Assembly (NCBI GenBank): GCA_000004695.1
Contig: CM000151.3
Coordinates: 6,432,001 to 6,496,000, forward strand
DNA from: Dictyostelium discoideum
Taxonomy: Eukaryota
Length of the DNA: 64,000 nt
Reading direction: 5' to 3'
The notes under the pieces are model-generated. The model did no database searches. It was given only the letters and a program-made list of their open reading frames with translations, and was not told where the DNA came from. Both the position numbers and the translations under genes were made by a program. Below, piece after piece: positions 16,691-50,134 of this stretch. The number at the start of each line of letters is the position of its first letter. The stretch's first letter is position 1.

Positions 16691-18078
16691 ATGACATTAG
16701 ACCCATATTCAGGATCAGTCGATTGCCGTGACTGGAAGAAATCAGCAATTAAAAAAGCTATTGAAGATGGTATATTTAAAGAACATGACTATGTAATGCT
16801 TTATAATCTTGACGAATTCAGAGCACTTGCCAAAGAAGCCTGCGACAACTTAAAAGGATTACAAACTATGGCAGTTAAATGTAATCCAGTTATGAGCTTA
16901 ATGAAAGAAGCAATTAAAGCTGGTCTTGGTGCTGAAGTTGCTTCATTTGGTGAATTAAGAATTGCAGAAATAGCTGGTTTTGAACCATCTGTAAGTATTC
17001 CAAAAATTTTTAATTCTTTTAAAATAAAAAAAAAATAAAAAAATAAAAAAATAAATCCTAATTTTTTTTTTTAATGAAAAAGAAAATTATATTTGATTCA
17101 CCAATTAAAACAAAAAAAGAATTAGAATATGCATTAAATTTAGGTGTTGTAATTAATATTGATAATTTTGAAGAATTAGAAACTATAGAATCAATTGTTT
17201 CAAAATTTTCAAAGGAAAAATATGAAAGTCTTTCGTTGGGTATTAGAGTGAATCCACAAGTTGGAGCAGGTAAATTAACTGATCTTAGTACAGGTGTACC
17301 AACATCTAAATTTGGTATTGGTATTGAACATAAAGATAAGATCATCGATGCCTATGTACGTAACAAATTTTTAAAGGGAGTTCATATTCATGTTGGATCA
17401 CAAGGTTTTGAAATTTCAAATATATCAGAATCTGCAGTTAAAGTTATGAATTTAGTGAAAGAGATTAATGCACGTGATGATACAAAATCTCAAATTACAT
17501 TCTTTAATATGGGTGGTGGTTTATCAGTAAACTTTGAATCAGAAGAGACTTCACCAACTTTCACTCAATATGCCAATCACATGAAACAATTATTACCAGA
17601 ATTATTCAATGGTGAATTTTTATTGATTACCGAATTTGGTCGTTCCTATTGGGCAAAATGTGGTGTCGTAGTTTCAACAGTTGAATATACAAAATCAAGT
17701 GGTGATCGTGAAATCGCAATTTGTCATGCCGGTGCAAATATGTACATTAGAACCGTTTATCAATTCCCATTGTGGAGAATTAGAGTAACCATTTTCGATT
17801 CAAATGGTGAATATAAAACTGGAAATGAAAAAATCACAGATATCGCTGGTCCTTGTTGTTTTGCCGCTGATGTTTTAGTAAAAGAAAGATTATTACCACC
17901 AATTAAAAAAGATGATTTCATTATGGCACATGATAGTGGTGCTTATATGCTTTCAAGTTATTCTCATTATAATTTAAGATTAGCTCCACCAATTTTCTCT
18001 TTTAATACCACAAATAATACAATTGAATTAATTAAAAAAGGTGAAACTATTGAAGATAAAATTAATTTCTTTTCTTAA
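16691..18078 (+). CDS. PLP-dependent decarboxylase of the Orn/DAP/Arg decarboxylase family (fold-type III; ODC/DapDC-like). Two exons: 16691..16990, 17083..18078 (431 aa).
   Basis: ATG at 16691. Donor GTAAGT at 16991; acceptor gaaaaag at 17082; phase 0. 'AVKCNP' matches the PLP-lysine motif (YAVKCN). Also present are a Gly-rich 'FNMGGGLSV' loop, 'HIHVGSQ', 'EFGRSY', and C-terminal 'AGPCCFAADVL' (the substrate-specificity Cys region). The exact substrate cannot be assigned. Confidence 0.75.
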
Positions 18079-18282
18079 AAAAATAAAATTATATTAAAAT
18101 TGTAAATCATTTTTAAACTTTTTATTTTATTAATTAATAATAATAATAATTAATAATAAAATGATTAAATAAAAAAATAAATAAAATAAAAAATTTTAAA
18201 TTAAAGGAGAAATACAAGATATTTATTATTAAATTGGAAAAAAAAGCCAATTATTATTATTATTATTATTGGTTTTTTTTTT

Positions 18283-20161
18283 TTAAAAAAGATCAGAAAT
18301 TAAATCTTTTGACGATGGTTTACAATTTTCAGGAATATCAAATGAAGCAATGATTTGTTTTGAAACTTTGGTAACTTCAAAACAAAGATCTTGAATTAAG
18401 AATGGGATTGATTGAGCAACATTTGGTGAGATTAAGTGATTTGAAACGAACCAACCTAAATCTTCTTCAATGGAGACAAGAGCGTCCAACATAATTAAAT
18501 GAGCTAATGGTTTAACGTTTTTAAGTTTTAATGTATTGATAGAGTTTTGGAAAACGATTTTAGTCATGTGAGCAAAACCTAATTTGACAGCCCATGGAAT
18601 TGCATTGTTAAAAGCGAAATAAGCAGGTTCTTTAGAGTTGCTAATGATTTGTTTTAATTCGGCCAAACGAATCTCTTCTCTAGTTTCAAATAATTGATTA
18701 ATATTTGAAAAATTGAATAATAACGATTTGGCATCTTCACCATCTAAATAGATACGATTGGTAGTGGTATTTGTTTGTTTTTGTTTTACACCTAATAAAT
18801 ACTTGGCCAATTGTTGCATGAGAACAGTATTATCACCTTCATATGTACAAACGATATCACAATCATTTTTAAATTCAGCTATACGATTTGCTGAACGGTA
18901 ACCTTGACCACCACAAGCTTCACGACAAGTTTGGAGTGCTGCAACACAGAACCAACTGTAAACTGCTTTGATACCTGAGCAATGGGCATGGATTGAAGCT
19001 GGTAATTTCTCTTGACATAATTCATTGGTTAAACGTTGAATGTAAAGATCAAACAAGATGGTTCTTGCCAATGGTGCCATAAGACGACGTTGTTGTGAAC
19101 TGAGAGTAATCAATGGAAGCTCATTATTTGCAGATGGACCAAACTGTTTTCTAATATGTGAGAATTCAATAGCAATAGAGAGGGAGGTTTTGGCAGCACC
19201 TGAACAACCTTTAGTGATTGCCATTCTACCAACAATGAATGGTGCCATTGTTGCAGCGAAATTCTTTATTGGTGTATTGAATTGACTCTTGTAAACACCG
19301 TCTTCGCTAACATCACTATATTTGTTTAAAAGGTTCTCTCTTGGGATACGAACTTGATCGAAACGAATTTGACCATTATCAATACCATTCAAACCTAACT
19401 TATGACCACAATCTTTAATGGTGATACCTTTCATGATTGCACCACTCTTTGGACAACGAAGTGGTACAACCAATGCATGAACACCATAATTTGTACCATC
19501 AATGATTAAGTTTGCGAAAACAGTAGTGTAGGTAGCATGAAGATAAGAACCACCAATCCAAAACTTTTCACTTGTTGGTGTTGGTGAATGAATGATAAAC
19601 TCTTTAGTTTGTTTATCGTAATGTGCAGTAGTTTCAATACCACGAACATTTGAACCATGACCAATCTCTGTCATTGCAAAGCAACCCATTGTCTTGAGGG
19701 TATTAGCATCTTCAATATATTTCTCATGTCTTGAGGTACCTAAAAACATGATTGTACCTCCAAATAATGTATAATGAACACCCAATTTGGTACAAACATT
19801 GTTATTATACAATGAAAACATTTCTACAACACCAGCATATCTGTGAAGGTTATTCTTAATATCAGTCAAATGAATTAATCCACTATTTGCAACAGCAACA
19901 CATTGTTCAAGTACTAATTGTCTATAGGTAGCCATATCCAATCCAATGAAATTCTCTTTGAATTTTGGATGATTTCTAATGAATTCTCTTGCTGCATCCT
20001 TATATTTACTTGCTTCAACTGAATCAATTAATAATTTTAATTCTCCAACATTTATATTTGCATCAATTGAATTAAATAATTCTTTTTCTAATACTTCATT
20101 TTTATTATTTGTTGTTTGACTATTAACATCTAAATGTTTTTTAATCTATATTATATATATG

Positions 20162-20204
<43 letters not shown>

Positions 20205-20364
20205 GGTATTAGTAACTACTTAAATATTGTTAATAAAAATAAAAAAAAAAAAAATATATATATTTAAATATTTTATTATAAAATATGTATGTATTAATAT
20301 TAATAAACTGAAAAAATAAAACTGATTATTTAATATTTACAATTTCAATTCTATTTTTATACAT
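18283..20364 (-). CDS. Acyl-CoA oxidase, tandem copy 1. Two exons: 20364..20341 (MYKNRIEI), 20145..18283 (628 aa).
   Basis: Real ATG at 20364. Donor GTAAAT at 20340; acceptor atatag at 20146; in frame with the long ORF. ACOX signature 'ACGGQGYRSANRIAEFKNDCDIVCTYEGDNTVLMQQLAKYLL'. About 95% aa identity to the copy at 22072..24104. Confidence 0.8.
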
Positions 20365-20849
20365 TGTTTGAGAGAGATAGAAAGAGAGAAATTAGGATTG
20401 TGTAGAAAAATAAAAATAAAATAAAAAAAAAAAAAAAAAAAATTAAATAAAAAAAAAAAGGTGAAATTTTTAAAATTATTTCATTAAAATTTAAAAAAAT
20501 AAAAAAAAAATGAAAATTTAAAATTTAAAATTTAAAAAAAACAAAAAAAGTGTCTCATCGCGTTATGAAATATCTAAATAAATGATGCCATAAAAATAAA
20601 TTTGAAATTTCCAATGCAATTGGCAACCATTATTTTCATTTTTTTTTTTTTTTTTTTTAAGCCAAAAACGATTATATTAAATCATGAAATGAAATTTCAA
20701 ATAAAAGGCAAAAAAAAAAAAAAGAAAAAAAAAAAAAAATTATTTTTTGTAAAAAAAAAAAAAAATATTATTTTCAAATTATGAATACTAATATTTATTT
20801 CAATTTAGTAATGTCATATGTTAATAATTTTGATTTTTTTTTTTTTCTT

Positions 20850-21171
20850 TTAAAATAATGATAAAGTTCCAATTAATTCTCCACCTAAAATTAAACCCTT
20901 AACACCACCTTCAATTCCTCCAACTAAAACACCACTAGCAACACCAACTAAACTACCTAACAAACTTCCTAAAACATTGAATTGTGCTTTTTCGCCACCA
21001 TAATTAACACTTTGTAATGAACTTGAGGCAATTTCATTCTTTGAGTTATTTTTAATTGAACCGATTTTAGTGATTGATTCTATCGTTTTATATTAAAATA
21101 TTAATTAATATAGTTTTATTTATATAAAAATAAGAAAAAAAAAAAATATGAAACTTACTTAAAATTGACAT
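20850..21171 (-). CDS. Small (80 aa) glycine-zipper membrane protein. Two exons: 21171..21159, 21079..20850.
   Basis: ATGTCAATTTTAA|GTAAGT donor at 21158; acceptor gatag at 21080; phase 1 is consistent. C-terminal 'GSLLGSLVGVASGVLVGGIEGGVKGLILGGELIG' is a GxxxG glycine-zipper TM motif. It is present only in copy 1 of the ACOX tandem duplication. Confidence 0.5.
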
Positions 21172-22071
21172 TTTTAATTATTTTTATTTGTTTTTTTTTT
21201 TTTTTTTATATTAAGTTTATTGTTTTTTTTAGTTTTTTAATTAAATGATTAATTTAAAAAATAATCTTCATTTAAATATGAAAAAAAAAAATTTAGGAAA
21301 AGAATTATTTAAACAATTTTATTTTAAAAAAAAAAAAATCATATGAACCAATTATAGATTATTCTAAAATTTCGACAACACGATTGGACAAAATAATAAA
21401 CAAAAAAAAAAGGTATTAAAACATTATTAATTTTTAAAAAAAAAACATAAAATAAAATTTATAAAAACTTTGACCCTTTTATAAGAATTATAGAGATATA
21501 TTTAATGATTTTATTCCATACACAAGTAAGTTGTTTTGTTTTAAAAAAAAAAAAAGAAAACTAAAAAAGTAATGATATTAAAAAAAAAAAAAAAAAATGG
21601 GGTGTGTTAAATCTGATATATATAGTTAAATATTTTTTTACCTTTTTTTTATATTAATTACCACACAATTAAATTAATTAAACTAATAAAATGTGGTATT
21701 GGTTTAATGTCTATTTATAGGATTAAAATGAAAACGAAAAAAACCCAATCATAGCATATACAAATTTATATTATATCTTTATCTTTTTCAATTATTTTTA
21801 TCATTAAAAAAAAAAAAAAAAAAAAAAATTATCCTTCATTTAATTAATTATAATTATATTATTTCATTTTTTTTTTTAATTAAAAATATAAATAATAATT
21901 TTATTAATATTAATAGAATTATTATTATTATTATTATTATTTTAAAATTATAAATTATAAATTAAATAAAAATTAAAATTAAATAATTTTAATTTATTTA
22001 ATTTTTATTTAATTTTATTATTATTATTTTTATTATTATTATTATTATTGTAATTATTATTGGTCATTTTT

Positions 22072-23950
22072 TTAAAAAAGATCAGAAATTAAATCCTTTG
22101 ATGATGGTTTACAATTTTCAGGAATATCAAATGAAGCGATAATTTGTTTTGAAACTTTAGTAACTTCAAAACAAAGATCTTGAATTAAGAATGGGATTGA
22201 TTGAGCAACATTTGGTGAGATTAAATGATTTGAAACGAACCAACCTAAATCTTCTTCAATGGAGACGAGAGCATCCAACATAATTAAATGAGTTAATGGT
22301 TTAACGTTTTTAAGTTTTAATGTATTGATAGAGTTTTGGAAAACGATTTTAGTCATGTGAGCAAAACCTAATTTGACAGCCCATGGAATTGCATTGTTAA
22401 AAGCGAAATAAGCAGATTCTTTAGAGTTGTCAATGATTTGTTTTAATTCGGCCAAACGCATCTCTTCTCTAGTTTCAAATAATTGATTTATATTCGAAAA
22501 ATTGAAAAATAACGATTTGGCATCTTCACCATCTAAATAGATACGATTGGTAGTGGTATTTGTTTGTTTTTGTTTTACACCTAATAAATACTTGGCCAAT
22601 TGTTGCATGAGAACAGTGTTATCACCTTCATATGTGCAAATGATATCACAATCATTTTTAAATTCAGCTATACGATTTGCTGAACGGTAACCCTGGCCAC
22701 CACAAGCTTCACGACAAGTTTGGAGTGCTGCAACACAGAACCAACTGTAAACTGCTTTGATACCAGAGCAGTGAGCATGGATTGAAGCTGGTAATTTCTC
22801 TTGACATAATTCATTGGTTAAACGTTGAATGTAAAGATCAAACAAGATGGTTCTTGCCAATGGTGCCATAAGACGACGTTGTTGAGAACTGAGAGTAATC
22901 AATGGAAGCTCTTTATTTGAAGATGGGCCAAATTGTTTTCTAATATGTGAGAATTCAATAGCAATAGAGAGGGAGGTTTTAGCAGCACCTGAACAACCTT
23001 TAGTGATTGCCATTCTACCAACGATGAATGGTGACATTGTTGCAGCGAAATTCTTTATTGGTGTATTGAATTGGCTCTTGTAAACACCATCTTCGCTAAC
23101 ATCACTATATTTGTTTAAAAGGTTCTCTCTTGGGATACGAACTTGATCGAAACGAATTTGACCATTATCAATACCATTCAAACCTAACTTATGACCACAA
23201 TCTTTAATGGTGATACCTTTCATGATTGCACCACTCTTTGGACAACGAAGTGGTACAATAAATGCATGAATACCATAGTTTGTACCATCAATGATTAAGT
23301 TTGCGAAAACTACAGCATAGGTAGCATGAAGATAAGCGCAACCAATCCAAAACTTTTCACTTGTTGGTGTTGGTGAATGAATGATAAACTCTTTAGTTTG
23401 TTTATCGTAATGTGCAGTAGTTTCAATACCACGAACATTTGAACCATGACCAATCTCTGTCATTGCAAAGCAACCCATTGTCTTGAGGGTATTAGCATCT
23501 TCAATATATTTCTCATGTCTTGAGGTACCTAAAAATATAATTGGACCTCCAAATAATGTATATTGAACACTCAATTTCGTTAAAATATTATTATTATACA
23601 ATGCAAACATTTCTAAAGCGCCTATATATCTGTGAAGGTTATTCTTAATATCAGTAAAATGAATTAATCCACGATTTGCAATTGCAGCACATTGCTCAAG
23701 TACTAATTGTCTATAGGTAGCCATATCCAATCCAATGAAATTCTCTTTGAATTTTGGATGATTTCTAATGAATTCTCTTGTTTCATCCTTATATTTACTT
23801 TCTTCAACTGAATCAATTAATAATTTTAATTCTCCAACATTAATATTTGTATCAATTGAATTAAATAATTCTTTTTCTAAAACTTCATCCTTATTATTTG
23901 TTGTTTGACTATTATTAACTTCTAAATGTTTTTTTATCTATATTATATAA

Positions 23951-23981
<31 letters not shown>

Positions 23982-24104
23982 CCTATTAGTATTGGTAATA
24001 TTTATAATAAAAAAAAATATTTTATTATGTATATTTGAAATATACATGAATTTAAAAAAATAAAACTATTTAATATTTACGATTTCAATTCTGTTTTTAT
24101 ACAT
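22072..24104 (-). CDS. Acyl-CoA oxidase, tandem copy 2. Two exons: 24104..24081, 23937..22072 (629 aa).
   Basis: Same exon structure as copy 1 (MYKNRIEI exon, GTAAAT donor, tatag acceptor). Nucleotide identity to copy 1 is about 95% through the CDS and about 500 bp of 5' flank. Confidence 0.8.
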
Positions 24105-24943
24105 TGTTTGAGAGAGAAAGAAAAAGAGTATTTAAGATTGTGTTTTAAAAAAATAAAAAAACAAAATAAATAATTATTTTTATTATTATTTTAATAGAAA
24201 TGGGAATTAAAATTTTAATTGAAATTAAAAAATTTAAATTTAAAAAAAATAATAAAAAAAAAAAGTGTCCTATTGCTTTATTAAATAACTAATGAAATAA
24301 TCTCAAGTCCTGTTAACAGGAATAAAAAATTTTATATGTACAAAAAAAAGTTTATAATATTAAAAAAACAGTTAAAATATATTTATATAATAAAAATAAT
24401 AGATAACATGTTAACTGAAAATAAATTTCGTACATTCATGTAAAAATTCCAACATTTGGAAAAAAAAAAATATTAATATAATTTTAAATTTATTATAGTA
24501 AAAAAAAAAAAAATTAATTTAAAAAATAAAAAATATTTTAAAATTATAAATCTATTACAATTTAGTAATGTCACATTTTAATAATTTTGATTTTTTTTTT
24601 TTTTTTTTTGTTTTTTTTTTTTTTTTTTTCAAAACTTATTTATAAAATTTACCACACAAATTATCAAAACCAATCATATCATATCAAATCAATATTATAT
24701 TTTATCTTTTTCGATTATTATTATGATATTAAAAAAAAAAAAAAAATAAAAAAAAAAAAAAATAAAAAAAAAAAAAAAAAAAAATTTAATCAAACAAATT
24801 TTAAATCCTTTAATTAATTTGTTTTAATTCTTTTAATTCTTTGTTTAACTATAATTTTTAATATTATTAAAATTATTTTTATTATTATTTTTTAAAATTA
24901 TAAATTAAAAATTAAATAAAATTTTAAATTAAATAATTTTAAT

Positions 24944-25319
24944 TTATTTATTTAATTTTTTTAAATTTATTGGTAAAATTTTAGAAAATATAGAAATTGT
25001 TGGTTTACTTTTTGAATTTATTCTTGAATTTACATTTTTCAAATAGTTTAAAAGATGATGTTCATCATATTTAATAATTCTTTTTCTTGGGGAAAGATCA
25101 ATTGTTGATAAATATTTTGCCAATGGTTTTGGATGATATTCAACTAAATGTTCTAAAATATGACTATGTCCTCTTGAATAAGATATTGAAATATGTTCTT
25201 TAGTTAATGGTAATGATAATGGTGATACAAATATCATTGACGATAATCCATTAATTGATAAATGAATCGGACTTGATGGTGATGATGAAATTTGTTGTTG
25301 ATTTTTTGTTGGTGATAAA

Positions 25320-25357
<38 letters not shown>

Positions 25358-27818
25358 TGTTGGTGATGATGAAATTGAATTTATTGGTAAAATTGGTAAA
25401 TTTACTGTTGGTATTGATGATGATTGGATTGGTGAAGAGGAAGAAGAAGGAGATGAAGAAGATGAAGAAGATGATGAAGATGAAGATAAAGAAATTGATG
25501 AAGTTGATAGTGAATTTGAAGGTATCATTATTGGTGAAACCTTATTACTCATTGATGGTGAAGAAATACTATTGATATTGTTATTATTGTTATTATTATT
25601 ATTATTAATTGATAAAGTATGATAAATTGGTGGTGGAGATGATGAATTTGGAGTACGTGGTGTAGTTGAACCACTTGGTTGTAAACAATATTTTATAATA
25701 TCTAAATAACCATAATTGAAAGCAGGTTTTAAAATATGAGAAAAATCTAAATTAACAGATACAGTTCTTGATACAACATCTTTAAAATATTTTAAAGTTG
25801 TAAGATCACCAGCTTCACCAATTGCAATCATTGTTGCTTCTGTGATTTGTACATCTCTTGGACAATATTGTTCGATAATATATTTAACAGTATCAAAACA
25901 AGTACCAGAGATAGCATTGATTAAAGCTTGTTCAGTACACCCTTCAGTCCTATTCTTTTGAAGGAACTGAATGACATCTAAATTACCATTGGAAGCAGCA
26001 TTGTTAATGGCCGCTTTACTACAAGGTTGGCCAGAATTATGTAAAAACTTGACCATCTCTAAATCACCCAAATAAGCTGCATTGCTAACGGCCCTACTTG
26101 TAGCTCCTTCAGTACGATGATTCAATAGATAACGTACCACCTCTTCATGACCATTATAAACTGCTTTATCAACAGCATCGGTTGTACAATGTGCAGATGT
26201 TCTATTCTCTGTTAAATATTTAACAATTGATAAATGACCATTTATAGCTGCCTTATCAATTGCATTACCGATGGATAACGTTTGGTCCAATTCATTTAAA
26301 TATTGAACGATTTCAAAGAAACCACTTGCAGATGAAATTTCCATACCACTACAATAGGATTGAGGTTGTAGATAAAAAGGTTCACCACCAAATATAACCA
26401 AAGCTTTAATTGCTGCTAAATTATTATATATACAACAATCTGAGAGTAAATTTGGGTTGAAACCACCATCTGGTATTGGTTTCTCTTGAAGTAGATAAGC
26501 CAATAGATCAGGTCTATCAACGAATCTAACAGCAATATCGAATGCTTTAGCAGTGATTTCAATTCCCAATCTATTACGACAAACTTTAATCAATTCTAAA
26601 TTCTTATATAATAGAGCAGATGCAATGAAATCCTCATTAAAGTTTACTCTAAAGAAACCTTCGAAATCAATATTACCAGCATGAGACATATAAAATTCTA
26701 AAATTTCCAATTGACCTTTACTAATTGACAATGTGAAAACTTCAATATTATTTGGTTGATATAATGTATACAAATATTTTACAATCTCAATATGACCACC
26801 TTCAATTGCTCTTTTTGTAGCACTATACAATGGTGATTCAATATGTGAATCTGGTGCCAATACAACAGTACTTGATGATCTACCACCTCTTGGACTATAG
26901 GGTATATTAATTAATGGTGTTGTATTGGTTGGTGGTATAATATTATTTTGAATTAAATATTTTAAACAATCTAAATGACCATATTGTGCTGCTAAATCTA
27001 ATGCTTTTGACCTTTTTGGTGTTGATGGTGGTGTTGATGAATTTATAATTGGTGATGATCCATTACTATTATTATTACTATTATTATTACTACCACTATT
27101 GTTACCACTATTATTATTATTATTATTACCACTATTATTATTGATATTATTATTATTATTATTAAATCCACTGCCACCCAGTATATTACCATTATTACCT
27201 AAATTTTTATGAAGATATTGTAAAATTTCTAAACTACCATTTGAAGAAGCATGATCAATTGCAAATAAAGTACATGGTTCATTCAATTGTTGATGAATAT
27301 ATTTAACCAATTCTAAATCATTGAATGCAACAGCATTTTCCATTGCACTATCAGTGCAACCATCATTTCTATTCTCTTTTAAGAATTTCACCATTTGTAA
27401 ATTACCCCAACGTGATGCATTATCGATAGCATAGGGTGATGCAGTGTAACCTTTGTTATGTAAATAAACCACCATTTCATAATTACCATAATATGCAGCA
27501 TGATCAATTAATGTTGGATATAATCTTGGAAAATATTCAATATATCTTTCAAAACACATTTTAAAAATATTGAAATCTGGTATTGAAAATATGATTTTTC
27601 TACAAACTGATGATATTATCAAATTATGACCTTGTTGAATCTTATCTTTAATTAATCCCCAATGTTTATGATTTATCATCCATTCTAATGATATTATATC
27701 TTTATATTTTCTACTTATAACTTTACTTCCAAATCTTTTAACACCTTTAAATATTTTACTTCTAATTTTAAAATTTGATAAAATTTTTGAAAATAAAATT
27801 GAATTTTTATCATCATTT

Positions 27819-27856
<38 letters not shown>

Positions 27857-27982
27857 ATTATTATACATTTCCAACTCTTCATTTTTAATTTCTGATTGAA
27901 TTGTTGGTGATTTTAATGTTAAGATTGATCTTGATGTTGGTGAACATTCTGTAACTATTATTGATGTTGTAGTTAATGACAT
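24944..27982 (-). CDS. Ankyrin-repeat protein (1012 aa, single exon) with an N-terminal Asn-rich region and Ser-rich insertions.
   Basis: Real ATG at 27982 (ATGTCATTAACT). About 15 repeats of the 33-aa ankyrin pattern (..AAxxGHLxxVKYL.....). Poly-Asn/Ser encoded by AAT/TCA runs. Confidence 0.75.
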
Positions 27983-43936: not shown

Positions 43937-44783
43937 TTTTTTTTTTTTTTTTTTTTTTTTTAATATTGGATTAACAAGATTGATATATGTCCATCTGTGT
44001 TAATACGAGTTTTATTTAATATTTATTTATAGGCTTATCATTTAAGCTGAAGGGTTATTTTAATCATATGAATTGATCAAAAGATATAATATTTGGGAGA
44101 GATGATTCTGGAATACAATAGTAATTAGCTGTTGTTTTTCTTAGCTTGATCGTTGAGGTGAGAAGGATCTTAGGATCTTTGAAATTATTATGGTCTTTTG
44201 CTGATAAGTTTTTCAGATCTTTTGCTTTTTTGATGTATTCTAGAGTGGCCAATTTGTGCCATTTCTTTAGAAGGGAGCTGTATGATAGTGATTCATTTGT
44301 TAAAGGATCTTCACTGTATATTTGATTGCAAATCCAAATCCAAATGTTGTGGAGGATAAGGGCCATTAGGTTTCTATATGCGTATGATCTGGATAGATCA
44401 TAGTCTATTGCTTTATAGTTCCATTCAAAGTATTCTTTGTGGAATCTGTGGTTGGCGTAATCTGCATTCACTTCTTGATCTTTTTTTTGCTGTCGGTGAT
44501 AATTTTGGAGTTATTCTATTAATGAAATTGTTATTTTGCCTAATTCTTGTATGGTGCCAGTTTTTACCTTTGCCTGTGGTAATATAGATGAAATTTTTGA
44601 GTTTATTTATTTTTATGAATTGTTTTGTTTTCTTGCATGAGAAGAACAGGTGACCGTATGGGTCTTTGCTCATATCTTCTTTGCAGAGTGGGCATTGTTT
44701 GTTGTGAAGGTAGTTTATTGGAAGGCATCTGGCATGGAATCTAAACATTGTGTCTCTTGTTTTAGGGTCTTTTATCTTCAGTA
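43937..44783 (-). mobile_element. 5'-truncated copy (847 bp including A-tail) of the adjacent non-LTR retrotransposon's 3' end, in tandem and in the same orientation.
   Basis: 43962-44783 is about 98% identical to 44804-45626 of the full element, which is the C-terminal ORF2 plus 3' UTR. It ends in a 25-nt poly(T) on the plus strand, i.e. a poly(A) tail on the element strand. ORF fragments at 44064..44471 and 44425..44748 are frameshifted relative to the full copy. Confidence 0.8.
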
Positions 44784-44906
44784 TTTTTTTTTTTTTTTTT
44801 TTTAATATTGGATTAACAAGATTGATATATGTCCATCTGTGTTAATACGAGTTTTTATTTAATATTTATTTATAGGCTTATCATTTAAGCTGAAGGGTTA
44901 TTTTAA

Positions 44907-47900
44907 TCATATGAATTGATCAAAAGATATAATATTTGGGAGAGATGATTCTGGAATACAATAGTAATTAGCTGTTGTTTTTCTTAGCTTGATCGTTGAG
45001 GTGAGAAGGATCTTAGGATCTTTGAAGTTATTATGGTCTTTTGCTGATAAGTTTTTCAGATCTTTTGCTTTTTTGATGTATTCTAGAGTGGCCAATTTGT
45101 GCCATTTCTTTAGAAGGGAGCTGTATGATAGTGATTCATTTGTTAAAGGATCTTCGCTGTATATTTGATTGCAAATCCAAATCCAAATGTTGTGGAGGAT
45201 AAGGGCCATTAGGTTTCTATATGCGAATGATCTGGTTAGATCATAGTCTATTGCTTTATAGTTCCATTCAAAGTATTCTTTGTGGAATCTGTGGTTGGCG
45301 TAATCTGCATTCACTTCTTGATCTTTTTTGGCTGTCGGTGATAATTTTGGAGTTATTCTATTAATGAAATTGTTATTTTGCCTAATTCTTGTATGGTGCC
45401 AGTTTTTACCTTTGCCTGTGGTAATATAGATGAAATTTTTGAGTTTATTTATTTTTATGAATTGTTTTGTTTTCTTGCATGAGAAGAACAGGTGACCGTA
45501 TGGGTCTTTGCTCATATCTTCTTTGCAGAGTGGGCATTGTTTGTTGTGAAGGTAGTTTATTGGAAGGCATCTGGCATGGAATCTAAACATTGTGTCTCTT
45601 GTTTTAGGGTCTTTTATCTTCAGTATGTTGTTGAAGAGTTGATTATAGCTGTAGCCTCTTAAGTTTAGAGATGATTGGAATTCCGTTTTAGGGATGGTTG
45701 GATTTTGGTCTTGAATTGTGGTATACCATTCTGCCAGTGAAAGTGGTTGTCCATTTTCGTTTTTTATGGATGTGAGATTATTGTTGAAGATTGCTTTTTT
45801 TATTCTTATTTTGTTCCATTCGTCTAAGTTTTCTTTTAGGTATCTGGATGTGAATTTGTTTTTTTGGATCTGATATTCCCAGCTTTTGTGATGAGATGAG
45901 TTTGTTTGTTTGGTTTCTAGTGCTAGGATGAACTGGTTTATGATCCAAAGTTTCTGCGCCAGTTGTCTCAATTCTATATTCCAAATGTTCCAGCCCCCTA
46001 CTTTTAGTGGGTATCTTGCTCTTTTGGTTCTCATTAAATTAATAACTTGAAATCCACTAGCATTTTTGTTGTTTGGTGCCGATAAAAACCATTCGACTAA
46101 TTTATTGATTTGGTTTAATTCCTCTTCCTTAAAGTTCTCTACATATGAATAGTAGGTTAATTTAGAGAGTGCGAATGCTTTGAGGATGTTGGTTTTGGTT
46201 TTGATTGTTGAGTCAGTGGTTTTCCATAGTACTAAGGATGATCTTATTGTGTTTAATATTTCTGGCATTTTTCTTGTTATCCCTTTGCCTGTGAAGAAGT
46301 ATCCCAAGTATCTTTCTGGATTTGTAGATATTGGAATTCTTTGGTTGGTATTGTCTGGGTTGCCTATAAGAATTGATGAAGATTTGTCGATGTTTAGTTT
46401 TGAGGAAGTGGCTTTGCAAAATGAATTGAAGTGTTGTAGTACTAATTCAAGTTGTTGAGAGTCTGGGACCATTGAAGCCGAGTCGTCTGCAAAGCTTTGG
46501 AATTTCTCTCTGTGGTTGCTGTTGTTTAGAGGAAGGCCAGTAATTCGGTCATCTTGTAAAATTTTTCTAGCTAAAGCCTCTATTACAAGGACGAACAGGG
46601 TGGGTGATAGTGGATCTCCTTGTTTAACTCCTCTTTTGATCTCAAAGGGTATAGTAGTTCTACCATTAATTTCAATTCTTGCTTCAGATTTGGTGAGTAG
46701 ATTCATTATCAGGTTGATTATATTGGTTGGAATGTTGATGTGTTGTAGTGATCTGAGTATTGAACCGTGTGAGATCGAGTCAAAAGCTTTTTCGAAATCA
46801 TATAGTGTAATTATTCCGTTAATTCTTTTATCATTACAATAGTTGATTAATTCGTTCATTGATATGATATTATCTATAATGAATCTGCCTGGTACGAAAC
46901 CTTTTTGATTGTGGTTGATCACTTTCGTTAGTATTGGGATTATTCTATTGTTTATTAGTTTTGAGTGGATTTTATATATACAGTTAGCCAGTGTAATTGG
47001 TCTTCTGTTTTTGATTAGTTCGGGGTCTCCCTTTTTAGGTATCGTGATAATGAGGCCTTCTTTGTAATTTTTGCTAATTAGATGAGGATTTCTTAGAGTG
47101 TCGTTGAATGCTGAGGCCAGTATTGGAGCTAGTTTTTCTTTGTGTGTTATGTAGAATAAGTTTGGAATTCCATCTGGGCCTGGAGATTTGTGTGGGTTCA
47201 ATTGTTTTATTACTTCTAGGATCTCTTGTGATGTGAATTCATTTTCAAGGTTGTCCCATGTTGAGTCCCTGGTCACTGTCCAATTTTCCAACATTTCATA
47301 ATGAGATGGTGGGTCATCTTCTTTGTAGTCATAAAGATTTGAGTAATATTTTACGTATTCTTCTTCGATCAATTCCTGTTTGTTGATTGTTCTACCTTGT
47401 GCATCTTTTACTGCGTTGATGGTGAAATCATTGTGTCTTTTCTTGATTCTCGCGGAGATGTACTTGAGTGAGGTTTCTTCGCAATAGTTGTTCAATTCTT
47501 GTTTAAGTTGTTCTTCTCTTTTTTTAGATTCATTTATTGCTGAAAGGGTTGCGAAGGCTTGGTCTTTAAATTCTGTCTCTAGTAGGGAGATTAGATTTTT
47601 GATGTTTGCCTTATTGTTGTAGTCATTTTGTTTTTGAAATTCTGTGTATAGTTGTTTTATTTTGTTTAGTAAGCTGTTGAGTTGAGAGAAGGAAATAGAG
47701 TTATGGTTGGATGACAGCTCCCTTGAATAATCGTTAAGTAGGAAGTCTATTTTCTTAAGCATTATGCTTGAGAGGATTGAGGATTTTTTTAATCTCCATC
47801 TGCGCTTGTTCATCTGTATGTTGGGTAGAGTGAAGGTGGTTGATAGGAAGTTGTGATCTGATAGAGGTATGTCATTAATTTTTGGGGGGATTAGGTTCCT

Positions 47901-48611
47901 TAAGTATAATTGGCTGTAGTTGATTATGCTATTGTTAAGGTATATTCTGTCTAGTCTCCTTTCCAAGATTCTTGTGAGGTTATTGTTTGTGTTGTGTATC
48001 GTTCTTGAGAAGGTGGGTCTTTTATTTAGTTGGTCCATATCCATTAGGTTATTTGAAATTCTGATGGCTTCGATTACTGTGGCCATCTCATCTGGGGATT
48101 GTGTTGTCAAGTTGCCTTGGTCATCATTTGATGTGTGATTGTCATTGAAGTCTAAACAATTGAAGTCGCCTGCTATGATGTCGATGTTTTTTTTAGGGTT
48201 AGACGTTAGGTTGTGGTATTGGTTGTTGAAGTGTTTGTTTAGTGTTGAAGCTAGTGTTTTTCTTTTATCAGGTTGGGCCGGGGCGTATATGGCCAAGATT
48301 CTCGTTGTGGTATCTTTTATTAGAATGTCTGATATTATTAGTCTACCTTCTATTATGAATATTGGTGAGAGTTTTATGTTTTGGTTGTTGTGGTTTAGTA
48401 TTCCTATTCCGTTGCCTCTGTTGGTTGCGCTAATGATGGAGCCAGGAAATAGCTGGTGTGCTTGTGTTGCGTCGGCGTTGAGTTCATTGACTATGGTTAG
48501 TGCCAATGAGTTTGGGGGGGATTGGGATTTGATAAAGTCTGTTTTGTTTTTGAAGGAGGTGTCAGTGCCCCAACCTCTGACATTCCATTGGTTGATTTTG
48601 ATTACTACCAT
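44907..48611 (-). CDS. Retrotransposon ORF2: apurinic-like endonuclease + reverse transcriptase + C-terminal CCHC zinc knuckle (1234 aa).
   Basis: Real ATG at 48611. The N-terminal EEP fold 'LAIYAPAQ...GDFNCLDF...SDHNF'. RT motifs 'PGPDGIPN', 'FEKAFDSISH', 'QGDPLSPTLF', 'SFADDSA' (YXDD box). C-terminal 'CPLCKEDMSKDPYGHLFFSCK'. Confidence 0.85.
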   Translation of the reverse strand: MVVIKINQWNVRGWGTDTSFKNKTDFIKSQSPPNSLALTIVNELNADATQAHQLFPGSIISATNRGNGIGILNHNNQNIKLSPIFIIEGRLIISDILIKDTTTRILAIYAPAQPDKRKTLASTLNKHFNNQYHNLTSNPKKNIDIIAGDFNCLDFNDNHTSNDDQGNLTTQSPDEMATVIEAIRISNNLMDMDQLNKRPTFSRTIHNTNNNLTRILERRLDRIYLNNSIINYSQLYLRNLIPPKINDIPLSDHNFLSTTFTLPNIQMNKRRWRLKKSSILSSIMLKKIDFLLNDYSRELSSNHNSISFSQLNSLLNKIKQLYTEFQKQNDYNNKANIKNLISLLETEFKDQAFATLSAINESKKREEQLKQELNNYCEETSLKYISARIKKRHNDFTINAVKDAQGRTINKQELIEEEYVKYYSNLYDYKEDDPPSHYEMLENWTVTRDSTWDNLENEFTSQEILEVIKQLNPHKSPGPDGIPNLFYITHKEKLAPILASAFNDTLRNPHLISKNYKEGLIITIPKKGDPELIKNRRPITLANCIYKIHSKLINNRIIPILTKVINHNQKGFVPGRFIIDNIISMNELINYCNDKRINGIITLYDFEKAFDSISHGSILRSLQHINIPTNIINLIMNLLTKSEARIEINGRTTIPFEIKRGVKQGDPLSPTLFVLVIEALARKILQDDRITGLPLNNSNHREKFQSFADDSASMVPDSQQLELVLQHFNSFCKATSSKLNIDKSSSILIGNPDNTNQRIPISTNPERYLGYFFTGKGITRKMPEILNTIRSSLVLWKTTDSTIKTKTNILKAFALSKLTYYSYVENFKEEELNQINKLVEWFLSAPNNKNASGFQVINLMRTKRARYPLKVGGWNIWNIELRQLAQKLWIINQFILALETKQTNSSHHKSWEYQIQKNKFTSRYLKENLDEWNKIRIKKAIFNNNLTSIKNENGQPLSLAEWYTTIQDQNPTIPKTEFQSSLNLRGYSYNQLFNNILKIKDPKTRDTMFRFHARCLPINYLHNKQCPLCKEDMSKDPYGHLFFSCKKTKQFIKINKLKNFIYITTGKGKNWHHTRIRQNNNFINRITPKLSPTAKKDQEVNADYANHRFHKEYFEWNYKAIDYDLTRSFAYRNLMALILHNIWIWICNQIYSEDPLTNESLSYSSLLKKWHKLATLEYIKKAKDLKNLSAKDHNNFKDPKILLTSTIKLRKTTANYYCIPESSLPNIISFDQFI

Positions 48612-49864
48612 TATGAGATGATATCGATCTCCTCTTGGGAGTCGTATAGCTGCGGTTTGGATGGTGAAGGGTAGATACTCTCTATGAAGCTCTCAATGAT
48701 TCCTTTCCTTTCTTTTTTGACAGGTGTCTTAGGGGTGGATGGGATGTAAGGGTTGCTTCTGTTTATTGTTGGTGAGAGTTGGGTGACCTCGTTGTTTGAG
48801 TGGATTTCCTCGTTCTTGCGTTTATGTGATGGAGGGATGTTTGGTGTCTTCTCTCTGTTTTCCGAGGATGAATGGATGTTAGTGCTCGTTTTGTTGGCAT
48901 TGTCTTTTTGGATGGCGTTGGATGTTGTGGTAGTGGTTGTGGTGGGTTTGACAGATTGAGATTCTGCTTGGTTTTTGGGGGGAAGAGGTTGAGAGGACTT
49001 TTTTGATTGGGCTTTTTTCTCTTGGGTTGATTGTTTATCAGACTGATTGTTTGCTGGGTCATTTGTTTGTTGTTGTGGTTTTGGTTGAGAGGATTTGATT
49101 GCTATCCTGTTTTGGGTGTTGGGAGGATCATCTGTCATCTCATCTTCTAATGGTTCTTCCGTGTTGTTTAACTCTACTTTCTTATTTTTCTTTTGTGAGG
49201 AGTAGGTTTTGGTGGCCGTTCTGATGGTAAAGTTGGCGATTTCTGTATTGTGTTGGCCAGATTTCATTTGATCGCCTATTTTGCATTCTATTAGACCGAA
49301 TACTAGGAGGTGGTCGGTGGAGTATATAGTATGGTATATTGCATAGGGTATTTCTTCTGCAAAGGCAGTTTTGATGAGGGCGTCCACTATTCCTGCCTTT
49401 TCTCTTGGAATTCTTACTCTTCCTGTGAGGACGTGGTAGTCTCTACTGGAGGTGATGAAGGTTCCCAATTTGCTTCTATCTCTAATGATATTTAGGAGAG
49501 ATTGTTCGTTTTTAATCATCAGGTGTATCATTTTTCTAGTTCCTTTGCCTATGTATATCTTGTCGATTGGGATATCGTAGTTTGAGAGTGTTTTTCTCAT
49601 TTCTTCTAACCCCATGAGATCCATTTTGGGGAATTCGAGTGTAATTGGGTAGAATCCGTTGTTTTTCTCGTAGGTTGAGAGCGCAGTCATGTTCAATATG
49701 GTCTCGCAGTATTTGGAGATGTCTTTGAGGCCTATTGATAATTTGGGATAGGTCTCCTTTATCTCTGCTGTTTTTGTGGAGAATTCCTTAATGAAGTTCT
49801 CTGATGCCTCGTCCATATGGGTGGAGGGGTTGGCCATTTTAGCCGCGTCTGCGTAGGAATTCAT
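48611..49864 (-). CDS. Retrotransposon ORF1 (417 aa, basic Gag-like; Pro/Thr/Gln-rich C-terminal half).
   Basis: Real ATG at 49864. The stop overlaps the ORF2 start. Confidence 0.7.
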   Translation of the reverse strand: MNSYADAAKMANPSTHMDEASENFIKEFSTKTAEIKETYPKLSIGLKDISKYCETILNMTALSTYEKNNGFYPITLEFPKMDLMGLEEMRKTLSNYDIPIDKIYIGKGTRKMIHLMIKNEQSLLNIIRDRSKLGTFITSSRDYHVLTGRVRIPREKAGIVDALIKTAFAEEIPYAIYHTIYSTDHLLVFGLIECKIGDQMKSGQHNTEIANFTIRTATKTYSSQKKNKKVELNNTEEPLEDEMTDDPPNTQNRIAIKSSQPKPQQQTNDPANNQSDKQSTQEKKAQSKKSSQPLPPKNQAESQSVKPTTTTTTTSNAIQKDNANKTSTNIHSSSENREKTPNIPPSHKRKNEEIHSNNEVTQLSPTINRSNPYIPSTPKTPVKKERKGIIESFIESIYPSPSKPQLYDSQEEIDIIS

Positions 49865-50134
49865 CTCGATGGGATTCCTTTGAATCGGCGATTTGGTAAG
49901 TTATATCTGTAGATCGTGGTGGATTGGTGATTTTTTTTGAAAGATTGGTTAAAATTGACCGAGATTAAGGATAGAAAAGGATGAATTACTTTTCACGTGT
50001 ATCTTGTATCCTCTTGATCGCGGTACGGTTTTTTTCGTATCTTGTATCCTCTTGATCGCGGTACGGTTTTTTCAAACATAACTTTTGTTTAATTAAAAGG
50101 TTGAGCCCAATAAGAGAATCGAACCAGGGACATT

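Follow-up and report, generated by a model that had tools for sequence, protein, structure and literature searches.

Tandem duplication of an acyl-CoA oxidase gene in Dictyostelium discoideum, with loss of a small glycine-zipper gene from one of the two units

Introduction

Tandem duplicates are common in Dictyostelium. Birth-and-death evolution of tandem duplicates, accompanied by interlocus gene conversion, has been catalogued for human segmental duplications (PMC3790853) and is also found at the Dictyostelium tgrB/C locus (PMC12745789). Here, a pair of acyl-CoA oxidase (ACOX) genes, ACOX-1 and ACOX-2, is analyzed in a 64,000-nt stretch of chromosome 2 of D. discoideum AX4 (contig CM000151.3, positions 6,432,001 to 6,496,000). 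This whole stretch is referred to as the window, and positions are counted from its first letter. The two ACOX genes, both annotated before, are an ordinary case of tandem duplicates under birth-and-death evolution. As in the arrays above, the ACOX units lie head to tail, vary from one to three copies among close strains and include pseudogenized members; the copies diverge at asymmetric rates and appear to be a mosaic of orthologous and paralog-homogenized tracts. Unlike those arrays, the ACOX array has only 2-3 units, its product is a housekeeping metabolic enzyme, and it shows no sign of diversifying selection.

The history that best accounts for the locus, and which we consider very probable, begins with a recent head-to-tail duplication in the D. 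discoideum lineage; a deletion and gene conversion came later, and the copies have diverged at unequal rates. Such gene-family turnover is ordinary and of little wider importance. The locus is nevertheless a clean, datable, small example of four processes in very close strains: a segment is duplicated, one unit loses a passenger gene, gene conversion affects part of the copies and pseudogenes arise.

Structure of the two units

Two units, both on the reverse strand, were delimited by blastn and anchored alignments. Unit 1 (18250..22040; 3.79 kb) is proximal to a decarboxylase-family gene and contains a 3' flank, ACOX-1, a 5' flank, a small 80-aa gene and a distal flank designated 'a'. Unit 2 (22041 to approximately 24975; ~2.93 kb) is proximal to an ankyrin-repeat gene and contains a 3' flank, ACOX-2, a 5' flank, a deletion scar and a distal flank 'a' that reaches the last ankyrin-gene codons. 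Each ACOX gene has two exons. In ACOX-1, which encodes 628 aa, exon 1 (20341..20364; MYKNRIEI) is separated by a 195-nt GT..AG intron containing an A36 run (20146..20340) from exon 2, which includes the stop codon (18283..20145). In ACOX-2, which encodes 629 aa, the corresponding segments are 24081..24104, 23938..24080 (143 nt) and 22072..23937, the last again with the stop codon. The small gene and the ACOX pair are part of the reference annotation, and exact database matches were obtained for ACOX-1 (XP_643323.1 / Q75JL8), ACOX-2 (XP_001732973.1 / B0G110) and the small gene (XP_643324.1 / Q75JL9, labelled 'hssA/2C/7E family protein').

The strongest blastn block aligns 18250-20190 with 22041-23981 at 95.3% identity (1944 columns, 85 mismatches), and the two proteins are 94% identical. 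Weaker blocks are collinear with it: 20221-20430 with 23948-24170, 20723-20851 with 24497-24608, and 21740-22019 with 24666-24971. The original prediction, made from the letters of the window, was of two tandem ACOX units about 95% identical, including 500 bp of 5' flank. The tandem arrangement was confirmed as head-to-tail and collinear. The figure of 95% is accurate for the 1.94-kb block, which runs from 33 nt on the 3' side through exon 2 into the beginning of the intron, but not for the flanks, which are homologous but degraded.

The sequence is extremely AT-rich (GC content of 10-36% per 1-kb interval), and percent identity is uninformative in AT-rich flanks. For this reason, z-scores and null distributions derived from the window were used instead. 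An unrelated AT-rich control segment reached 86.6% identity in aligned columns (z = -0.5), and the evidence is therefore carried by the z-scores and not by the percentages. Between the two units, exon 2 is 95.8% identical in aligned columns (z = 140.2 against shuffles), the intron 89.4% (54 nt unaligned; z = 8.8), the 5' flank, taken as far as the stop codon of the small gene, 85.6% (156 nt unaligned; z = 12.8) and the distal flank 'a' 87.1% (z = 9.8). The intron, 5' flank and distal flank are thus truly homologous between units, though degraded, and between one quarter and one third of their bases cannot be aligned. The distal flank occupies 21655..22010 in unit 1 and 24646..24960 in unit 2, where it abuts the ankyrin-repeat gene stop codon (24944-24946). 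Anchored segment alignments were used because a global MAFFT alignment of the whole units misplaced a 0.8-kb indel at the end.

The units therefore share collinear head-to-tail homology that extends into noncoding DNA, which identifies a tandem segmental duplication. Identity confined to the coding sequence had been proposed as the sign of conversion rather than duplication. That choice is a false dichotomy, since collinear noncoding DNA shows duplication, and site patterns and synonymous divergence (dS), described below, add conversion to it.

The locus in related genomes

The syntenic locus was taken from nine other genomes, in which ACOX and the small gene were mapped by tblastn. The assemblies appear to be those of PMC12745789, a study that includes the discoideum-clade isolates CR116C and OT3A and the possible cryptic species M4B and S6B. 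A single ACOX gene occupies the syntenic site in D. firmibasis (L002), D. cf. discoideum 'Z' (L003), two strains of D. citrinum (L004 and L009), D. dimigraforme (L005) and D. purpureum (L008). Together with the collinear noncoding homology, this demonstrates that ACOX-1 and ACOX-2 are a recent head-to-tail tandem duplication in the D. discoideum lineage. In the five single-copy relatives other than D. purpureum, the small gene is flanked by the ankyrin gene on one side and ACOX on the other, and ACOX is followed by the decarboxylase gene.

Multiple copies were found in the remaining genomes. Two further D. discoideum strains (L001 and L006) have three ACOX copies, the middle one being a frameshifted pseudogene, and D. 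cf. discoideum 'Y' (L007) has a 5'-truncated, frameshifted copy, then the small gene and then an intact ACOX. In every array, the small gene is found only in front of the decarboxylase-proximal ACOX.

In the case of D. purpureum, the single ACOX adjoins the decarboxylase gene, no small gene was detected at the locus and the upstream neighbor is different. That neighbor, on GL871062.1, is a 963-aa gene on the opposite strand, while the ACOX-decarboxylase neighborhood is kept. The small gene may have arisen after the D. purpureum lineage separated, or D. purpureum may have lost it.

Two further features were observed in the relatives. A 90-bp ACOX coding fragment, 85% identical to AX4 exon 2, is located at L003:9338-9426, where the spacer that separates the small gene from ACOX is enlarged; the assembly annotates a 102-aa open reading frame there on the opposite strand. 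The fragment may have been left by another partial duplication. In the three-copy strains, the spacer preceding the middle copy, the pseudogene (L001:8646-10000 and L006:5144-6385), contains a ~200-nt pure (AAT)n microsatellite and ~950 nt of unique, higher-GC sequence without counterpart in AX4 or in the single-copy loci. An unfiltered blastn search with this L001 'a'-to-'b' spacer was swamped by (AAT)n; with a low-complexity filter applied, the ~950-nt sequence of L001 matched only the other three-copy strain.

Loss of the small gene from unit 2

As predicted, unit 1 contains an extra segment of ~0.8 kb that encodes the 80-aa protein. This segment (~20852..21655) comprises the small gene with its promoter region, and its counterpart is missing from unit 2. 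Two landmarks bracket the gene, TTGTGTGGTAA upstream of the promoter and GACATTACTAAATTG just past the stop codon. The distance between them is 853 nt in AX4 unit 1 and in the last L001 unit, 884 nt in L003 and 907 nt in L004, as compared to 87 nt in AX4 unit 2; in L001 and L006, the landmarks of the first unit are 67-70 nt apart. Unit 2 retains flank motifs from both sides of the gene (24558-24572 and 24649-24659), and between them lies a scar consisting of a T-run and ~19 nt (24609..24645). AX4 unit 2 and the first L001 and L006 units align throughout their upstream regions, junction included. From the landmark distances and the common junction it follows that ~0.8 kb was deleted from the ankyrin-proximal unit before the strains diverged.

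The presence of the small gene at this position in five single-copy relatives makes it ancestral. The 'gain or loss' left undecided in the original prediction is thereby settled: the small gene was lost from unit 2, not gained in unit 1. In addition, the 'a' flanks of both AX4 units map to one and the same segment of the single-copy outgroup L003; flank 'a' was therefore itself duplicated.

A similar sequence was noted in D. cf. discoideum 'Y'. At L007:9849-10100, the sequence that follows the TTGTGTGGTAA landmark (GTGGTAAATTTTAAT...) resembles the 'a'-unit deletion junction of D. discoideum.

Age of the duplication and gene conversion

In a neighbor-joining tree of all ACOX copies, the D. discoideum copies form one clade (83% bootstrap) within the cf. 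discoideum sequences. Derived sites, polarized with outgroups, fall into two sets. Seventeen are common to AX4 copy 2 and both 'a' copies, and all of these lie at alignment nt 66-1044. Nine others occur in the AX4 pair alone, and six of these lie at nt 1227-1764. The two sets differ in position (Mann-Whitney p = 3e-4). The dS between the paralogs within AX4 (0.108) is below that between orthologs, both for the downstream copies (0.119-0.136) and for the upstream copies (0.184-0.198). Segregated conflicting tracts, together with paralogs that are less diverged than orthologs, constitute the pattern of interlocus gene conversion.

The site patterns, the dS values and the common deletion junction therefore point to one old duplication and a later conversion within AX4. 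They show that the duplication predates the split of AX4 from the two other D. discoideum strains, and that the 3' half of the AX4 ACOX copies was probably homogenized afterwards. The amino-acid differences between the AX4 copies are clustered in codons 90-235, as would result from conversion of the 3' half.

Unit boundaries and breakpoints

Unequal crossing-over was originally proposed from a shared flank motif, an AT-rich sequence of ~70 nt said to occur near 18100, 21940 and 24890 in the order A-unit-A-unit-A. Two of the three places were verified. Exact matches to the motif occur at 21941/21985 and 24891/24935, and the sequence is well conserved at 21941-22000 and 24891-24950. Near 18100, no match was found even when two mismatches were allowed. 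The segment 18079-18250, aligned with both motif copies, was compared with 62 control segments, likewise AT-rich, from the window. It scored no better than these controls, 13-18% of which reach its score, and its own reverse strand scores higher. No third copy of the flank repeat thus exists outside unit 1, and the proposed signature is unsupported. The two motif copies are the homologous right ends of the units, and the structure is unit-unit.

A shorter sequence is present at all three unit edges. The 8-mer TTATTGGT, which reads ACCAATAA in gene orientation, is found at the left edge of unit 1 (18266..18273), at the unit junction (22057-22064) and at the right edge of unit 2 within the last ankyrin-gene codons (24967-24974). 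Homology of the units begins at 18250 and 22041 and ends near 24975. In the single-copy L003 locus, ACCAATAA is found both in the last ankyrin-gene codons and ~25 nt past the ACOX stop codon. This placement suggests a microhomology-mediated origin of the duplication.

Proposed history and alternatives

From these data, the ancestral locus consisted of the ankyrin gene, the 80-aa gene, a single ACOX and the convergent decarboxylase gene, as in the single-copy relatives. A segment of ~3.8 kb, from the last ankyrin-gene codons to ~30 bp past the ACOX stop codon, was then duplicated in tandem, probably between the two 8-bp ACCAATAA microhomologies, both of which are present in the closest single-copy relative. 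Deletion of ~0.8 kb with the small gene and its promoter from the ankyrin-proximal unit followed, before the split of AX4 from the two other strains. Judging from the site patterns, ACOX-1 and ACOX-2 of AX4 were probably homogenized later over their 3' half. By the estimated rates, the upstream copy, intact and still under purifying selection, changes its amino acids ~3.5x faster than the downstream copy. Turnover in relatives is seen as a third copy, frameshifted pseudogenes and a truncated copy.

Several observations weigh against this history. Random pairs of 60-nt AT-rich windows have such an 8-mer in common ~3% of the time, and an (AAT)n microsatellite has meanwhile expanded over the junction of the units, which leaves the breakpoint mechanism inferred. 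AX4 copy 2 joins the 'a' copies at only 55% bootstrap in the neighbor-joining tree, and the two AX4 copies are mutually nearest overall (p-distance of 0.043, as compared to 0.060-0.083 to the extra copies of other strains). This nearness is attributed to gene conversion, and it weakens orthology assigned from the coding sequence alone. The truncated L007 copy clusters with its own neighbor (100% bootstrap), yet its left deletion junction seems to be the same; the tree may underestimate the age of the duplication, with homogenization in L007, or the duplication may have recurred. Finally, the sites are divided on whether AX4 lost a middle copy or other strains gained one, with five linking 'b' with 'c' and five linking 'b' with 'a'.

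Four other explanations were weighed. The mutual closeness of the AX4 copies and their nine private derived sites are what would be expected of a very recent duplication in the AX4 lineage, independent of the arrays in other strains and without gene conversion. The deletion junction is identical across strains, the L001 and L006 'a' units are orthologous to AX4 unit 2 in the upstream flank, and the 17 derived coding sites held in common with the 'a' copies are confined to the 5' 1044 nt; on these grounds, independent duplication is quite improbable. Unequal crossing-over between pre-existing long flank repeats, with three ~70-nt motif copies, draws on the conservation of the motif at two of its places. 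It would require the copy near 18100, where the sequence lies within the null (control z = -0.5), and we hold it to be highly doubtful.

Within AX4 alone, insertion of the small gene into unit 1 after the duplication would be indistinguishable from its deletion from unit 2. The gene is strongly conserved and occupies the corresponding place in five single-copy relatives, and unit 2 retains the flanking sequences of both sides; insertion therefore has very little chance of being correct. A collapsed or expanded repeat in the reference assembly has nothing specific in its favor beyond the AT-rich, repetitive character of the region. The copies differ at 85/1944 aligned positions and in structure, both exact proteins are encoded by consecutive genes in a second NCBI assembly, and arrays are present in three other independently assembled genomes; such an artefact can be regarded as virtually negligible. 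A head-to-tail duplication followed by deletion, conversion and unequal divergence thus remains the favored history.

Divergence of the ACOX copies

The ratio of nonsynonymous to synonymous divergence (dN/dS, or ω), a calculation proposed with the original prediction, is 0.21-0.24 between the AX4 copies (dS ~0.11-0.13). It does not exceed 0.52 in the most divergent 70-codon window tested, and there is no sign of diversifying selection. As compared to an inferred pre-duplication consensus, the upstream copy (ACOX-2) has dN of 0.026 and ω of 0.19, and the downstream copy (ACOX-1) has dN of 0.0075 and ω of 0.07; the consensus ancestor is crude, and these lineage values are approximate. The rates indicate that the upstream copy, which is intact, is under purifying selection and changes at the protein level ~3.5x faster than the downstream copy. 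Its excess changes are concentrated in codons 90-235, in the N-terminal and middle domains around the acyl-binding region. Extra copies in other strains have ω of 0.25-0.35, and several are frameshifted.

A functional reading of this asymmetry would be that the ankyrin-proximal copy, more than a relaxed duplicate, is acquiring a new substrate specificity and that the polymorphism of one to three copies is an adaptive, strain-specific tuning of peroxisomal fatty-acid oxidation in an amoeba that feeds on bacteria. The ankyrin-proximal copy is intact in AX4 and in one other strain; the other extra copies have decayed. We regard such a role as unlikely.

The ACOX proteins

Both AX4 copies have the domains of known peroxisomal acyl-CoA oxidases (ACOX/ACX; solved structures 5y9d, 5ys9, 1w07 and 1is2), namely Acyl-CoA_dh_M, ACOX_C_alpha1, Acyl-CoA_dh_1 and, weakly, the ACOX C-terminal domain. 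Pfam PF02770, PF22924 and PF00441 score above cut-off in both copies, and the best PDB matches of both products are all acyl-CoA oxidases. The C-terminal domain PF01756 is only at or just under the Pfam cut-off in the AX4 copies (20.2 and 22.9 bits, cut-off 22.1). The TxEG(D/E)N motif of known enzymes is conserved as TYEGDN in both, where 'ctyegdntvl' aligns to 'ctwegdnnvl' of 5y9d_A. The Glu of T-x-E-G-(D/E)-N is presumably the catalytic base, as is established for rat ACOX1.

The copies differ from known ACOX/ACX enzymes in their apparent targeting. Both proteins end in ...SDLF and therefore lack a C-terminal peroxisomal targeting signal type 1 (PTS1). Both begin MYKNRIEIIKKHL (20341-20364 + 20119-20145 in ACOX-1; 24081-24104 + 23911-23937 in ACOX-2), and residues 5-13, RIEIIKKHL, match the nonapeptide consensus of the N-terminal type 2 signal (PTS2) as quoted in PMC3465988. 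The PTS2-like sequence is split by the sole intron, its first half being encoded at the end of exon 1, and its IK(K/N)HL part is kept in 10/10 ACOX orthologs and paralogs examined. Judged by these motifs, ACOX-1 and ACOX-2 would both be peroxisomal acyl-CoA oxidases targeted through a PTS2 signal. In a proteomic study of a mitochondrial fraction (PMC8145953), the copy 1 product was identified under the name 'acyl-CoA oxidase A'. Literature searches by accession returned only this proteomics mention of XP_643323.1 and nothing specific to copy 2, and a literature search turned up no paper on the ACOX duplication.

In a large protein search, the nearest non-dictyostelid relatives were ~37-40% identical, and many were bacterial. 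The best of these matches are mostly bacterial proteins of the 'acyl-CoA dehydrogenase family' (~765 aa, 36-39% identity) from Bacteroidota such as Flavobacterium and Saprospiraceae, and scattered eukaryotic ACOX proteins score alike.

The small glycine-zipper gene

The 80-aa gene (20850..21171, reverse strand) has a very short first exon (21159-21171), an intron (21080-21158) and a second exon that includes the stop codon (20850-21079). Eight glycines at a period of four (residues 42, 46, 50, 54, 58, 62, 66 and 70) form a glycine zipper, as read from the sequence and as had been predicted. The gene is intact in 8/8 relatives carrying it, the last 43 residues of the protein (from Phe38) are invariant, and dN/dS as compared to D. 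firmibasis is ~0.04 (0.011/0.280).

A Pfam search with the protein returned no family at threshold, and a search of 5.8 billion proteins returned only its own ortholog cluster (AX4 and D. firmibasis). Sequence similarity did not place it in the hssA/2C/7E family, and that name comes from the source annotation only. It resembles the family in its small size and in having two exons, the first of them very short. Its MSIL..SI N-terminus resembles hssA-type N-termini, and its C-terminal half is a (GxxxG)-type zipper, unlike the Gly/Cys-rich tail of hssA proteins. The gene is annotated only in AX4 and D. firmibasis. It is uncalled in L001, L003, L004, L005, L006, L007 and L009, and is almost invariant across these seven newer assemblies. 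The comparison thus flags a strongly conserved glycine-zipper gene that is unannotated in new Dictyostelium assemblies.

Neighboring genes and base composition

The neighbor of ACOX-1 is a two-exon gene of the Orn/DAP/Arg-decarboxylase family (16691..18078, forward strand), which is convergent with ACOX-1 and is kept in all relatives examined. The upstream neighbor of the ACOX array is the ankyrin-repeat gene (24944..27982, reverse strand), which encodes 1012 aa. Elsewhere in the window, positions 44000-50000 have a GC content of 0.31-0.42, far above the rest of the window, with a strong, sustained positive GC skew and a negative AT skew relative to the remainder.

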